A stretch of 64,000 nucleotides of DNA from an uncultured Phascolarctobacterium sp. (GTDB lineage: Bacteria > Bacillota > Negativicutes > Acidaminococcales > Acidaminococcaceae): positions 38,854 through 102,853 of the forward strand of contig NZ_CABQHJ010000003.1 in the NCBI RefSeq assembly GCF_902463975.1, written 5' to 3'. Each line of letters opens with the position of its first letter. Position 1 is the first letter of the stretch. The notes under the pieces were generated by a model. That model was not told the origin of the DNA and ran no database searches. It worked only from the letters and a program-made list of their open reading frames with translations. Positions 53,682 through 61,088 of the stretch are shown piece by piece. Position numbers and translations under genes: made by a program.

Positions 53682-54521
53682 TCATTTTACAGGTATTGAT
53701 AATTTAAAAACATATTCATTCTTGTCATTAGTAATCCAATAGTCCTTTTCAAAAGAAACTATTGTATCACCATTTATCTCAAGTTCATTACGTTCAATAA
53801 ATTGAAAACACTTTTTTATCCATGCTTCACAACAATGATGATAGTTACCCTTTCCATATATCGAAACATAGCATTGATTTTTTGTCTTATGATTAACCAG
53901 TTTTCGAAAATCATCAATACAATTATAATTATCCATAGCAAAGAACCTGCTTACAGGACTACATTGAAACTTTTTGGTGTTATCCTGACTCAAAAACCAA
54001 CCTGTAGTCAAATCACAGTTATTAAGCCTAAAAAGATTTTTCAGGAAATTTAACCTTATAATAAGGTTATTTTTATCCCCATCCATCGAAGATAGATTTT
54101 GAGAAACATACATTTCATATTCAGGCAGTTGTTCCAATAAAACTCTATCCAATATCAGATTTCTTATGTGGTCCGTTTTCCTAAGAATAGTTTGCACACT
54201 TAGCATTTTTGCCATAAGTTCTTTCTGTTCAAGGATTAATTCTTCTTCTTTTTTCCTCAAAAGATTACTTACGATGTTTTCATCACGGTAATGCAAAAAC
54301 TCACGTATATCCTTTATAGAAAAACCTAATCGTCTCATGCAAACAATCATTTCTAACACATGATGTTCCGCTAAAGAATAATACGCATAATTATTATCTT
54401 GGTTTCTTTTAGCAGGCTTTAACAGCTTTTCTTTTTCATAGTAACTCAATGTTTGCTTAGAAATATTAGCAAGCTTTGCAATTTCGCCAGATGTAAATGT
54501 ATTTCTAATTGATTTTACCAT
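53682..54521 (-). CDS. MerR-family transcriptional regulator with C-terminal effector-binding (GyrI-like/BmrR-type) domain
   Basis: FTSGEIAKLANISKQTLSYYEKEKLL is a MerR HTH. About 180 aa of C-terminal domain follow. Confidence 0.75.
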   Translation of the reverse strand: MVKSIRNTFTSGEIAKLANISKQTLSYYEKEKLLKPAKRNQDNNYAYYSLAEHHVLEMIVCMRRLGFSIKDIREFLHYRDENIVSNLLRKKEEELILEQKELMAKMLSVQTILRKTDHIRNLILDRVLLEQLPEYEMYVSQNLSSMDGDKNNLIIRLNFLKNLFRLNNCDLTTGWFLSQDNTKKFQCSPVSRFFAMDNYNCIDDFRKLVNHKTKNQCYVSIYGKGNYHHCCEAWIKKCFQFIERNELEINGDTIVSFEKDYWITNDKNEYVFKLSIPVK

Positions 54522-54532
54522 GGTACCCCTTC

Positions 54533-55528
54533 TTAATAACCCTTTAACAATTTTTCTTCCTTCATATCAAAAGTAGGTCCATAAATACTATTATACAATC
54601 CCTTGATAGCATAAACACAGTTCTGCGAATTTGAATAAATATACCTATCAGGTATCGCTATTACTCTTTTCATTCCTTTCAGATGTTGAAAAGCAGGATC
54701 TTCTAAAAATTCTTTTCTAAACTGAACATCTTTGGGTTCTTCATATTCTCTACCTGCAGAAACAAGAAAAACATCAGGATTTGAGGCTATGATAGATTCT
54801 TTGGTTACGGTTTCGCCATAATGTATTCCCTGCATGCTAATTGCATTTCTTATTCCGGCATGCTTACAAATATCATCATAGACACAGCCTATTCCTCCAT
54901 ACTGTCTCATTCTGGATGCTAACATAACAACCGGCTGTTCAGCTTGTTTTAATTGAATTTTATCACGAACTTCTGCTAGCTGTCTATCCATTTCACGTAT
55001 TAATTTATCACCGTTTTCTTCCTTACCCATAGCCTGAGACATTAGTCTTATGTTATACCTGATATCATCAATGCTATTGGGACCTCTACAGACAACTGTC
55101 TTTATACCCATTGCTCTATAAGATTCAATAACATTTTTATCTAAAGTATCAGGTACAAAGATAACCTGAGGATTCATCGCCATAATTGACTCTTCACCGA
55201 GTTGCTTAAATAACCTATATTCTGTCTTTATATTCTTTGTTTCCTCAGCAATATACGAAATTGCTGAATCCTTGTCAAGGTAATTTTTAGCTACTAAATA
55301 ATCGGCAGGCGCAATTCCTAAAAGAATAGTGTCATACGTAAGATTATAACACAAAACTCTCGTAGGCTTAGCATCGAAAATAGTTTTATATCCTAAATTA
55401 TCAATAACGAAATAACTATCTTGTCTGTTCGTCTGATTAATACCTACGAAACTTACAATGATTAAGCAACTCAAAACTAGTATAACAATGGCGAAAAATA
55501 TTCTATATATTTTATTATCACTATTCAT
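54533..55528 (-). CDS. periplasmic binding protein, FecB/HmuT-like (class III), N-terminal membrane anchor
   Basis: TroA-like fold similarity. Its start overlaps the CobN-like gene end by 8 nt. Confidence 0.75.
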   Translation of the reverse strand: MNSDNKIYRIFFAIVILVLSCLIIVSFVGINQTNRQDSYFVIDNLGYKTIFDAKPTRVLCYNLTYDTILLGIAPADYLVAKNYLDKDSAISYIAEETKNIKTEYRLFKQLGEESIMAMNPQVIFVPDTLDKNVIESYRAMGIKTVVCRGPNSIDDIRYNIRLMSQAMGKEENGDKLIREMDRQLAEVRDKIQLKQAEQPVVMLASRMRQYGGIGCVYDDICKHAGIRNAISMQGIHYGETVTKESIIASNPDVFLVSAGREYEEPKDVQFRKEFLEDPAFQHLKGMKRVIAIPDRYIYSNSQNCVYAIKGLYNSIYGPTFDMKEEKLLKGY

Positions 55529-58943: not shown

Positions 58944-58970
58944 AAGTCCTCCATACGCATAATAATTAAA

Positions 58971-61088
58971 TTAGAACCTGTAATTAAGTTCTACAGAATA
59001 TGTACGTCCAGGTTGATAATAATAATTAAAGAAATCTCTATCTAAAATATTATTTACCGATGCAGTTAAAGTATAGTTCTTGTTAAATGAATAACTAATA
59101 TCCATATTCATAATAAAGTATGGATCGTATGAACCATAAACTCCATTAACTGTATCACTGTTATCTGTTTTGCTGAATCGTTTGCTGATGTATTCTCCTG
59201 TTAGCATGCCGCTCCATTTATCATCACTATAGGTAACACCTGCACGAAATACTTCTTTAGGAATAGCCGTAACATATTTATCCTTCTCAGTCGCCTTTAA
59301 AGCTTTTTTTATTACAGGATTTTGATAGGTATAATTTAAAAAGGCACTCCATTTATCATCAAAATTATGATTTAATTCCAGTTCAAAGCCTTTCGCTTCT
59401 GCTTCACCAGCGTTTTGGTAGCATGTAGCATTCATACCATCTACCACGCCTAAAGAGTTTTTATACAGCAAGCCTTTATACTTTGTATCATAAACAGATA
59501 CACCTATTGCAGACTTATTGTTTAAATCTTTCTTATAGCCCAATTCAAAAGTCTCAGCCTTTTGTGGTTTAAGATTAGGATTTGCAATATTATAGACATT
59601 GGAGCTATAACTGGAAGAATACATTCTATATAATGACGGAGCTTCAAAAGCTTTACCCCATGACAAATATACACTGCTGTCAGCTTCCGGTTTATACATA
59701 ACGCTTAAGCTAGGACTCCAATTATCATAAGTAGACTCGTCATAATTAATGGCTTCAGTTTTATTAGGTAACAGAATTCTTCCGTCTGTAGACCATTTAT
59801 CATAGCGTAAGCCTGCTGTAGCTGTCCATCTGTCAGAAAATTTATGCTCATCCATAACATAAGCAGAGAAAGATTTATTAGTTCCGCTAGCCATAGAATC
59901 CACTGCTATCTTACTGTCACTGTTAAACTTATCTGCCAACTTATAGACAGTAGCATCCATCTTATCTTTTCTGTAGTTTAAGCCAAATACTGCATTGTTA
60001 TTAGCAGAAATTGTTTGGTTTTTTTGTAAATCAAAAGAAAATCTGGTATTTGGTTTAGATGAATCAGTTGCTTTAGAAATACTTGTATCATGCTGCTTGT
60101 ATTGATCACTATAACCTACTACAGCTTTCCAGCCATTTTCGCTATCATTATAGGTCATGTTATATTTATTAGACGCTTTTTCACCCGGAGTAGAAAAATA
60201 TGTTCCTGCCTTCTTTATAATATCATCACCAAAATAACTTGTGGGCGCAGAATAAGAATACTCATATTCATTTTTAGTAAAATCTAAAGCTAAAGATTTA
60301 GATTCATCGAAATGGTATTTGAACCCAACTCCAACAGTGTTTTCATCCCATTGTCTTTTACCCTTATTGCCGATTATCCATCTCTTCGCTCCGGTGTTAG
60401 TAGTAGTAGTTTCAGCTCCAATAACAGCTTTAGAGCTCAAAACCGGATCGGTAATATAACCGTCTGTTTTTTTCTTTTCGTAATTAACATTAAAATCTAA
60501 TTTATCACTGGCTTTTCCGGCAACATATAAGCTATGATTTTGAGTATTATTAGATCCATATGACAATTTTAAATTGACGGATGTTTTATCCACATCTTTA
60601 GTGATAATATTAATTACACCGGCAAGTGCGTTACCACCATAAAGAACAGATGCAGGTCCACGAAGTACTTCTACCCTTTTTACCATATCTACAGGAATAG
60701 CAGACCATGTTACAGAACCATTATAAGAATCATTTACCTGAACACCATCGACCAATACTGCTACAGAATTCGCTGCATTAACACCTCTCATTACTGTCTG
60801 AGAAGTAGTTGAACCAATCCCGCTTAAACGACCTACATACACTCCCGGAATCTTGACAAATGCTTCATCCAAATTATTGATATGCATCTTATTTAAATCT
60901 TTATCAGTAATAACACTGACACTGGCAGCAGTATCTAATAATTTCTTTTCACTACGTGTAGCCGACACCACCATTTCATCTAAAACAAAATTTTCATCAA
61001 GTACATCATTATTCTGTGCAAAAGCATTCATAGAACTGCCTAAAACAACTAACATCATTAATGTACTACTTACTCGCTTAGTACTCAT
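58971..61088 (-). CDS. TonB-dependent outer-membrane receptor (HmuR-like)
   Basis: Start taken at MSTKRVSSTLMMLVVLGSSMNAFAQ (signal peptide), with AAAGGAG upstream. Plug domain (DEMVVSATR TonB box, RVEVLRGPASVLYG), a beta-barrel, and a C-terminal ...ELNYRF ending in Phe. Confidence 0.85.
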   Translation of the reverse strand: MSTKRVSSTLMMLVVLGSSMNAFAQNNDVLDENFVLDEMVVSATRSEKKLLDTAASVSVITDKDLNKMHINNLDEAFVKIPGVYVGRLSGIGSTTSQTVMRGVNAANSVAVLVDGVQVNDSYNGSVTWSAIPVDMVKRVEVLRGPASVLYGGNALAGVINIITKDVDKTSVNLKLSYGSNNTQNHSLYVAGKASDKLDFNVNYEKKKTDGYITDPVLSSKAVIGAETTTTNTGAKRWIIGNKGKRQWDENTVGVGFKYHFDESKSLALDFTKNEYEYSYSAPTSYFGDDIIKKAGTYFSTPGEKASNKYNMTYNDSENGWKAVVGYSDQYKQHDTSISKATDSSKPNTRFSFDLQKNQTISANNNAVFGLNYRKDKMDATVYKLADKFNSDSKIAVDSMASGTNKSFSAYVMDEHKFSDRWTATAGLRYDKWSTDGRILLPNKTEAINYDESTYDNWSPSLSVMYKPEADSSVYLSWGKAFEAPSLYRMYSSSYSSNVYNIANPNLKPQKAETFELGYKKDLNNKSAIGVSVYDTKYKGLLYKNSLGVVDGMNATCYQNAGEAEAKGFELELNHNFDDKWSAFLNYTYQNPVIKKALKATEKDKYVTAIPKEVFRAGVTYSDDKWSGMLTGEYISKRFSKTDNSDTVNGVYGSYDPYFIMNMDISYSFNKNYTLTASVNNILDRDFFNYYYQPGRTYSVELNYRF

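Follow-up and report, generated by a model that had tools for sequence, protein, structure and literature searches.

The 64,000-nucleotide (nt) stretch of DNA analysed here (the window; positions 38,854 to 102,853 of contig NZ_CABQHJ010000003.1, forward strand, from an uncultured Phascolarctobacterium sp.) contains an AT-rich island with four genes, which encode a TonB-dependent outer-membrane receptor, a protein of the CobN/ChlH family, a substrate-binding protein and a MerR-family regulator. We read this island as a horizontally acquired, strain-variable four-gene operon. It would be a minimal form within an uncharacterised class of Negativicutes loci that join uptake genes to a cytoplasmic CobN-type subunit, and in it a tetrapyrrole would be taken up and then metallated or demetallated; taken as a whole, we judge this reading about equally likely to be right or wrong. 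CobN-family enzymes act on tetrapyrroles, and it is because of this chemistry, of the haem-carrier relatives of the binding protein and of the haem-receptor subfamily that scores best for the receptor that the operon is linked to tetrapyrroles. The host is the diderm Firmicute Phascolarctobacterium succinatutens (Negativicutes, order Acidaminococcales), because nine window proteins, some of them encoded in the island and others beyond it, have exact counterparts among the RefSeq or UniRef entries of this species or of ‘uncultured Phascolarctobacterium’; an initial annotation, made from the letters of the sequence alone, had already deduced a diderm, Negativicutes-like host.

The four open reading frames (ORFs) lie on the minus strand between 53682 and 61088, where the initial annotation had placed them, within an island of 8481 bp (53216..61696, no strand assigned) whose borders were taken from comparison with island-free strains by blastn. 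Windowed guanine-plus-cytosine (GC) content bears out the annotated contrast in composition: the content is 0.333 in 53181-61661 compared with 0.475 in the remaining window, and a 200-nt profile steps abruptly near 53.2 kb and 61.6 kb. Comparison of metagenomic and genomic contigs showed that two alleles of the locus exist within the species. In the island-free allele (loci L093-L100), a Thg1-like gene is followed by a gene for an intact Pnkp-like protein of 736 amino acids (aa) with the Pfam domains AAA_33, Metallophos and RNA_lig_T4_1, then by ∼400 bp and by a UvrA paralogue. In the island allele (the window, L001-L006 and L101-L108), Pnkp is shortened to 393–396 aa and the four-gene block is located between Pnkp and the UvrA paralogue. 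When the window was compared by blastn with the empty-site loci L093 and L096, homology stopped at 61697, inside pnkp, and restarted at 53215, which is 35 nt upstream of the ATG of the uvrA-like gene; in the place of the island, island-free strains have 1425 bp of host-like DNA (GC 0.45) that includes the Pnkp ligase domain. The flanking pnkp-like gene of the window (61662..62852, minus strand) thus encodes 396 aa in which the kinase and phosphatase domains are kept and the ligase domain is lost, and the final 11 residues before the stop codon are encoded by the island. Because the island-free allele holds an intact pnkp, the island allele is the derived state and the island is acquired DNA that truncated pnkp, so that the horizontal acquisition first suggested from base composition has now been seen as an empty site.

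A mobile-element origin was considered and rejected, because no terminal direct or inverted repeats, integrase or transposase ORFs or flanking tRNA were found at the island borders and plasmid and phage collections gave no near match to the island; megaplasmid CobN genes reach an identity of only 38% or less. As a separate observation on the site, the island-free strains carry an RNA-repair cassette (L093 5935-12994, corresponding to window 61662-63935) which consists of RlaP, two unknown genes, Tpt1 (PTS_2-RNA), a Thg1-like gene and the 736-aa Pnkp, and the ligase domain of Pnkp is therefore missing in island-bearing strains.

Within the island the genes follow one another head to tail in the order receptor, CobN-like protein, binding protein and MerR regulator, with intergenic gaps of 27, -8 and 11 nt, where the negative value is an overlap of the CobN-like stop codon with the start of the binding-protein gene; the four genes therefore form a single operon. 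Genes of ChlI/ChlD or CobS/CobT type, an ATP-binding cassette (ABC) permease and an ATPase are all lacking from the island; of these, the initial annotation had already named CobS/CobT, the permease and the ATPase as missing. A chelatase AAA+ or VWA gene was also not found among the scanned window ORFs of at least 150 aa, and no cob or cbi gene is adjacent to the CobN-like gene. Since neither permease nor ATPase is encoded in the island, the transporter would have to be supplied in trans.

The second gene (55521..58943, minus strand) encodes 1140 aa that match the Pfam family CobN-Mg_chel with 1097 bits, and the product is predicted to be a soluble, cytoplasmic class-I chelatase large subunit. 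Neither a transmembrane (TM) segment nor a signal peptide was found in this protein (the maximum Kyte-Doolittle value of a 19-residue window is 1.5), and its N-terminus MNYILFVSNKESVN and its acidic C-terminus are not hydrophobic. With 825.6 bits it passes marginally the cut-off of 822.05 of TIGR02257, the CobN equivalog of NCBIfam, and it falls under the cut-offs of the remaining CobN and BchH models. Against solved structures it scores 603 bits with M. tuberculosis CobN (7c6o), 516 with a second CobN, 444 with ChlH and 319 with HmuS (9d26), which comes seventh in the PDB search. The initial annotation, which had likened the island to a haem-acquisition locus, had set two possible findings against its own proposal, namely a grouping of the protein with cobalt chelatases and adjacent cobS and cobT genes; these scores place the protein on the CobN side, and no cobS or cobT gene is adjacent. 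The motif HLGTHG at residues 529–534 is superfamily-wide and does not discriminate between families; its counterpart in HmuS is HFG(T/A)HG with the essential His-538 (PMC12583661). The segment MLESDDYNAFHGG (SDDYNAFHGG), in a putative alignment anchored on GG, stands at the place of the HmuS motif LSLDHxxEFMGG that provides His-1209 and Glu-1212 (PMC12583661). In MLESDDYNAFHGG the second axial His and the Glu of HmuS are replaced by Asp and Ala, and Negativicutes relatives conserve the segment in the form SDD[YF]Nx[FY]HGG. A Met-rich insertion is likewise lacking (at most 4 Met per 60-residue window and 2.5% Met overall), and relative to Negativicutes paralogues of 1223–1250 aa the protein has an 89-residue deletion after residue 697. 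It is not an ordinary B12-pathway CobN either, because there is no partner gene, cob gene or cobalamin riboswitch in the island or window, because a complete B12 pathway is predicted for the host and because there are strains that lack the island.

The third gene (54533..55528, minus strand) encodes a class-III substrate-binding protein (Pfam Peripla_BP_2) of 331 aa with an N-terminal hydrophobic anchor. Its best relatives in the PDB are haem carriers, namely RhuT (5gj3), ShuT (2r7a), HmuT (3nu1/3md9), CgHmuT and BhuT, and BtuF is not among its best solved relatives. In NCBIfam, IsdE outscores BtuF for this protein, and models of haem type outscore those of BtuB and BtuF by a wide margin. The first gene of the operon (58971..61088, minus strand) encodes the receptor (Pfam Plug and TonB_dep_Rec_b-barrel), whose length of 705 aa is counted from an ATG with an AGGAG ribosome-binding site, where the mechanical ORF extends to 61112. 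The receptor has a signal peptide, the TonB box DEMVVSA, a plug, a barrel of the 22-strand family and a C-terminal Phe. Among the NCBIfam subfamilies, TonB-hemin ranks first, followed by haemoglobin/transferrin, siderophore and B12 receptors; the match to TonB-hemin amounts to 270.8 bits, under its cut-off of 316.85, and the siderophore-receptor model gives 211 bits with a cut-off of 223.5. A FEAP...NPNL stretch is present in the sequence, and matches in the PDB include CirA, PhuR and BtuB.

The last gene (53682..54521, minus strand) encodes a MerR-family activator of 279 aa, in which Pfam calls MerR_1 and MerR helix-turn-helix domains and which may have a BmrR/EcmrR-like C-terminal effector domain. 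EcmrR (6xl5) matches it over its full length (E = 4e-9), and the top Foldseek matches of its AlphaFold model are BmrR, EcmrR and BrlR. Upstream of the receptor gene, reading of the sequence gave a single strong promoter for the operon, TTGACT-19 nt-TATAAT (61166..61196, minus strand), with a half-conserved dyad of GTATA/TATAC type in the spacer. A 19-bp spacer is a hallmark of promoters that are activated by MerR-family proteins such as BmrR and EcmrR. A canonical sigma-70 promoter was rejected, as a scan of the operon strand over 61089-61700 for spacers of 16–18 nt was empty. In the 4.0 Mb of fetched loci the pattern TTGAC-N16-[AG]GTTTA-N3-T has 25 matches, compared with 0.3 expected, all of which lie on the CobN strand upstream of a CobN locus, in the island clade, in a clade with 64% identity in the CobN-like protein and in L048, L057, L059, L109 and L111. 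The promoter in the form TTGAC-N19-TAnnnT is conserved in nine independent sequences, and L047 and L113 have variants of the same spacing. A MerR homologue was detected in all loci with the pattern except L057 (Acidaminococcaceae), for which only ∼4 kb of upstream flank was available, and homologues with 25–33% identity adjoin the CobN loci L047, L048, L059, L109 and L111. The spacer dyad ACTGTATA-N5-TATACAGT is perfect in L048 and L109 and keeps 6 of 8 positions in three others.

Because the 19-bp-spacer promoter is common to the paralogous MerR/CobN loci, the MerR protein is likely to be the sensor, as the initial annotation had supposed; the GyrI-like character that it had also named is, for the C-terminal domain, weakly supported, on a low-confidence model. 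Being the product of the last gene of the operon, the regulator would activate its own expression. Control by Fur was rejected, because the best matches to a Fur box upstream of the operon (12/19 for the 19-mer consensus and 11/15 for the 7-1-7 consensus) equal the modal best of shuffled sequence, so that the Fur-box search suggested with the initial annotation gave nothing above chance. Likewise, Rfam gave no cobalamin riboswitch or other leader RNA in 61089-61700 at gathering score or at E ≤ 1. The MerR-type promoter and the likeness of the regulator, together with the lack of a Fur box above chance, favour ligand-induced activation over derepression by iron starvation. Near the transcription start there is also a perfect 9+1+9 palindrome, AACGATATAaTATATCGTT (61141..61159, no strand assigned), which may serve as a second operator or fold into a 5′ RNA hairpin and which matches the Fur box at 11 of 19 positions, the level of chance. 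Different perfect inverted repeats lie likewise just downstream of the -10 element in L007 (∼455-480) and L111 (∼2258-2295).

The closest relatives of the CobN-like protein form a cluster with 98% identity (P. succinatutens), followed by proteins with 64% and 59% identity and then by a gap to about 42–45%; in a scan of species-representative genomes with the CobN alignment, relatives among the matches listed have at most 49% identity. The 64% and 59% relatives lie on metagenome contigs in cassettes with an identical order of receptor, CobN, binding protein and MerR but different flanks, and the overlap of the CobN stop with the binding-protein start is kept in both. The remaining three proteins of the 64% cassette share 72%, 66% and 60% identity with their island counterparts, and the GC content of this cassette is 0.41 compared with 0.50 in the flank. 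The four genes thus stay together, with overlapping or near-abutting ORFs, down to 56–59% protein identity in three lineages, and the cassette is a conserved and probably a functional unit. More distant CobN genes of Veillonella, Dialister, Phascolarctobacterium, Schwartzia, Selenomonas and Acidaminococcaceae are surrounded by genes for TonB-dependent receptors, Peripla_BP_2 proteins and FecCD/FecE systems, and a neighbour search with the island proteins found no uptake genes of the island type in actinobacterial or alphaproteobacterial CobN loci.

Among the 129 ORFs that adjoin CobN in 12 Negativicutes loci, a count of Pfam families found Peripla_BP_2 in 17 ORFs, AAA_lid_2 in 14, AAA_5 in 13, Mg_chelatase (ChlI) and Plug in 9 each, VWA and ABC_tran in 8 each, Oxidored_nitro (NifDK-like) in 7, FecCD in 6, radical SAM and MerR in 3 each and NifH in 2. 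By this count, the longer paralogues usually have ChlI/ChlD partners, and the cassette of the island is stripped down by comparison. In several CobN loci many binding proteins accompany a single permease, and an orphan binding protein is therefore normal in such loci. Two annotated loci serve as examples: in L109 (Phascolarctobacterium sp.) a divergent MerR gene is followed by a NifH-like gene, two NifDK-like genes and genes for a binding protein, FecCD, CobN, a radical-SAM enzyme and a second binding protein, and in L111 a divergent MerR gene is followed by a receptor gene (57% identical to that of the island), an ATPase/CbiQ module of energy-coupling factor (ECF) type and a CobN gene (42% identical to that of the island). 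We also noted MerR-controlled operons in Phascolarctobacterium and Dialister in which ChlI, ChlD and CobN genes stand together with genes for NifH/NifDK-like reductases, radical-SAM enzymes and uptake (L048 3186-13405, L059 2277-16803, L109 3548-15895 and L047 8831-13534); all four share the 19-bp-spacer promoter, and together they look like an unknown tetrapyrrole pathway.

In the mechanism that we propose, the receptor would carry a tetrapyrrole-type ligand, either haem or a porphyrin, or else a corrinoid or its precursor, across the outer membrane, and the membrane-anchored class-III binding protein would pass it to a resident ABC importer of FecCD/FecE type encoded elsewhere. The soluble CobN-like protein would then bind the ligand in the cytoplasm and insert or remove its central metal, perhaps helped by ATPases of ChlI/ChlD type that paralogous loci encode. 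The BmrR/EcmrR-like MerR protein may sense a small planar ligand, plausibly the substrate, and activate the operon and itself by remodelling the 19-bp-spacer promoter. The data themselves show which genes are present, how they form an operon, that the island was acquired, that the cassette is conserved and how its promoter is built, together with the cytoplasmic location predicted from sequence and the lack of HmuS hallmarks. We infer what class of substrate is taken up, which way the metal reaction runs, that partners act in trans and what the inducer is.

Several observations weigh against this reading. Both a ChlI/ChlD partner and a permease would be needed in trans, and neither is present in the island or the window. 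The receptor stays below every NCBIfam subfamily cut-off; moreover, a mark of haem receptors is a conserved His flanked by a FRAP and an NPNL box, and no His is present between the FEAP and NPNL boxes of this receptor, which argues against a haem-type substrate. Haem-binding class-III proteins such as ShuT, PhuT and HmuT have an axial Tyr in the context Y-x-R/K. In Yersinia HmuT the haem iron is bound by Tyr70 and His167 (PMC5316997). The residues of the binding protein that align with these ligands are both Leu, and a Tyr is present two residues upstream of the ligand-aligned position; with no axial ligand, such a pocket would accommodate haem but equally well a corrinoid or a porphyrin free of metal. 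Residues 138–210 of the MerR model, in the C-terminal domain, have a predicted local distance difference test (pLDDT) score of only 31–43, and no GyrI-like domain is called by Pfam; the homologue search for this protein gave cassette-linked relatives only, and the poor model of the effector domain follows from this shallow alignment. Among the loci compared, the spacer dyad of the island has degenerated furthest: only 2 of its 8 positions are symmetric, and its right half-site is conserved. Finally, some strains hold damaged copies of the island, namely L102 with a 6.2-kb internal deletion, L106 with a split MerR gene, L107 with a split receptor gene and L003 with a shortened binding protein, and because of these inactivated copies the module is judged dispensable and perhaps decaying.

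The island shares features with several known systems and coincides with none of them. CobNST and ChlHID (M. tuberculosis CobN, 7C6O; Synechocystis ChlH, 4ZHJ) give the best sequence matches and share with the island protein the full-length domain family, the cytoplasmic location and the conserved active-site motifs, whereas the island gene has no AAA+/VWA partners and no cob or bch neighbours, lies in an uptake operon on a strain-variable island and carries the 89-aa deletion. The BtuS class (B. fragilis BtuS1/BtuS2), which is CobN-like and for which metalloporphyrin salvage was predicted by Rodionov et al. in 2003 as far as that work is relayed in PMC6460266, resembles the island in having a CobN-related gene beside uptake genes of BtuB/BtuF type outside cob operons. 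However, the BtuS proteins studied are exported and membrane-attached (PMC6460266), whereas the island protein is predicted to be cytoplasmic, would be controlled by MerR and belongs to a Negativicutes branch nearer to CobN. The haem uptake systems of Yersinia (HmuRSTUV), Shigella (ShuA/ShuT) and Pseudomonas (PhuR/PhuT) also pair a TonB-dependent receptor with a class-III binding protein and include the closest solved relatives of that protein, but the island lacks a permease and an ATPase, does not conserve the Tyr and His ligands of haem and has a CobN-like cytoplasmic partner instead of a haem-degrading or haem-shuttling protein of ShuS/HmuS type. The regulator shares with BmrR, EcmrR and BrlR the N-terminal MerR helix-turn-helix and a target promoter with a 19-bp spacer, and it may also share a long coiled coil and a C-terminal effector domain of ∼160 aa. 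Known members of this type control multidrug efflux or stress genes, whereas the island-type regulators would control chelatase and uptake operons.

Among the other explanations, it is rather unlikely that the island works in the manner of the hmu system of Bacteroidota. On that reading the receptor would import haem and the CobN-like protein would remove the iron without ATP or partners, like HmuS, to supply iron and/or protoporphyrin. In hmuYRSTUV (HmuS of B. thetaiotaomicron, PDB 9D26, and of P. gingivalis), as in the island, the receptor gene adjoins a gene of the CobN/ChlH superfamily in an operon without ChlI/ChlD, and both proteins hold an H-x-G-T-H-G motif. The HmuS reaction is partner-independent (PMC12583661), which the lack of a ChlI/ChlD partner in the island fits, and the haem-carrier relatives of the binding protein and the TonB-hemin ranking and FEAP...NPNL stretch of the receptor point in the same direction. 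However, HmuS has ∼1460 aa and is a periplasmic enzyme anchored by N- and C-terminal TM helices (PMC12583661, PMC6460266), in which a Met-rich stretch is inserted and haem is liganded in the head/neck region by Met-79 and His-254 (PMC12583661), whereas the island protein has 1140 aa and is predicted to be soluble and cytoplasmic, lacks that insertion, has neither the second axial His nor the Glu in MLESDDYNAFHGG and is about half as similar to HmuS as to CobN. No HmuS-type protein is encoded in the loci fetched for comparison. The genes for HmuY, HmuT, HmuU and HmuV are absent, with Peripla_BP_2 and MerR genes in their place, so that only the receptor is common to both; in addition, neither a Fur box above chance nor any other hint of regulation by iron was seen, and the binding protein is without haem ligands. 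Because TM anchors, Met-rich insert and HmuS motif are lacking and the scores are nearer to CobN, the island is, as far as its sequence features go, not an HmuS-type system, and the analogy with Porphyromonas hmu drawn by the initial annotation fails on these defining features. Its label ‘HmuT-like’ had also conflated two unrelated proteins, as the binding protein resembles Yersinia HmuT and Shigella ShuT and not the HmuT of Porphyromonas and Bacteroides, which is an inner-membrane protein (PMC12583661).

We regard it as unlikely, too, that the CobN-like protein is a true cobaltochelatase large subunit; the island would then import a metal-free or incomplete corrinoid (or a cobalt chelate), and the protein would insert Co with ChlI/ChlD from paralogous loci and thereby serve the B12-dependent succinate-to-propionate pathway. 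The nearest characterised relatives are indeed CobN proteins (603 and 516 bits), the TIGR02257 cut-off is passed, in related Phascolarctobacterium loci ChlI/ChlD genes accompany CobN behind a MerR promoter of this type, ligands of haem iron are missing from the binding protein as they are from BtuF-type proteins, and the methylmalonyl-CoA mutase of the host is B12-dependent (PMC7568257). Nevertheless, a complete B12 pathway is already predicted for P. succinatutens (PMC7568257) and many strains do without the island; the leader contains no cobalamin riboswitch even at a permissive threshold, BtuB and BtuF models fall well behind haem-type models, and no cob or cbi genes are adjacent. Least probable, and in our view distinctly improbable, is a module for uptake of something other than a tetrapyrrole (a siderophore or metallophore), or a decaying passenger, with a CobN-like gene uncoupled from the transporter or an island in the course of being lost. 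The receptor does score with siderophore receptors (211 bits, with a cut-off of 223.5), several natural alleles are inactivated and the promoter dyad is degenerate; against this, the four genes have been kept together in three lineages down to the identities given above, the link of CobN with uptake genes recurs across the Negativicutes, and the window, like most contigs inspected, carries an intact copy of each of the four ORFs. Tetrapyrrole uptake coupled to a cytoplasmic CobN-type subunit thus remains the reading that we prefer.

Beyond the island, the window holds further features of the host and of its variable DNA. The FecCD/FecE pair at 25062-26893, which the initial annotation had proposed as transporter for the island's binding protein, is real, but a gene at 26883-27842 already supplies it with a binding protein, whose identity to that of the island is 21%. 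A sub-threshold adenosylcobalamin (AdoCbl) riboswitch match (24648-24828, minus strand; 36 bits compared with a gathering score of 50, E = 0.006) lies in the gap that separates the FecE-like ATPase gene from one that encodes a 318-aa TIM-barrel protein (23517-24473), and because this match adjoins it, the system at 25062-27842 might be corrinoid-related. As for the Firmicutes hallmarks named by the initial annotation, a PrkC/PASTA kinase is present at 10392-12356, whereas the T-box at 572-753 (minus strand) is detectable only below threshold (68 bits compared with an Rfam gathering score of 93, E = 1e-12); the gene controlled by this putative T-box would sit past the left end of the window. 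The UvrA paralogue next to the island (50697-53180, 827 aa) aligns only to UvrA residues 251–937 and appears to be without the UvrB-binding region and class-II UvrA-like; in several strains it is split into ORFs of 196 and 614 aa. A second strain-specific AT-rich block (39719-44198, GC about 0.31), which is absent from L101 and L105, consists of two related tandem units of about 2.58 kb each, and its ORFs have no meaningful Pfam match and one sub-threshold match to a poxvirus family. Relative to L101, the window also has a 1.7-kb insertion at 47695-49365, between DUF6125 and FrhB-like genes, with a gene for a 511-aa Schlafen AlbA_2 / HATPase_c_4 / MarR-like protein. Finally, an AT-rich stretch at 31970-34307 (GC 0.36), with a RhuM/Fic-domain gene beside the sole tRNA gene of the window (34234-34307), may be another integrated element.

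Among CobN-like proteins encoded beside uptake genes, only the periplasmic HmuS branch of Bacteroidota is characterised, and most other branches of the superfamily are not annotatable according to the authors of that study (PMC12583661). Metalloporphyrin salvage by CobN-like genes beside uptake genes was predicted as early as 2003 (Rodionov, in the part conveyed by PMC6460266), and the cytoplasmic Negativicutes branch with its MerR promoter is uncharacterised in the literature searched. A wider proposal, which we put forward tentatively and with low expectation, is that Negativicutes of the human gut possess a hitherto unrecognised regulon in which BmrR-like MerR sensors switch on CobN-type chelatases together with outer-membrane uptake. 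Because some of the loci also hold NifH/NifDK-like reductases and radical-SAM enzymes, this regulon could be an economy of tetrapyrrole import and remodelling, apart from both B12 biosynthesis and hmu, with the island as its minimal mobile form, and the shortened CobN-like protein, which has no partner genes beside it, could be an independently evolved cytoplasmic metallase or demetallase. Since island-positive, island-negative and naturally inactivated strains coexist, the cytoplasmic CobN-like branch and its MerR sensor are directly testable, and the 19-bp-spacer promoter provides a handle for definition of the regulon and for a search for the inducer. P. succinatutens, which is abundant in the gut, has been associated with colorectal cancer (PMC11494908), and if the substrate is haem or a corrinoid, the island would bear on competition for these cofactors in the gut.

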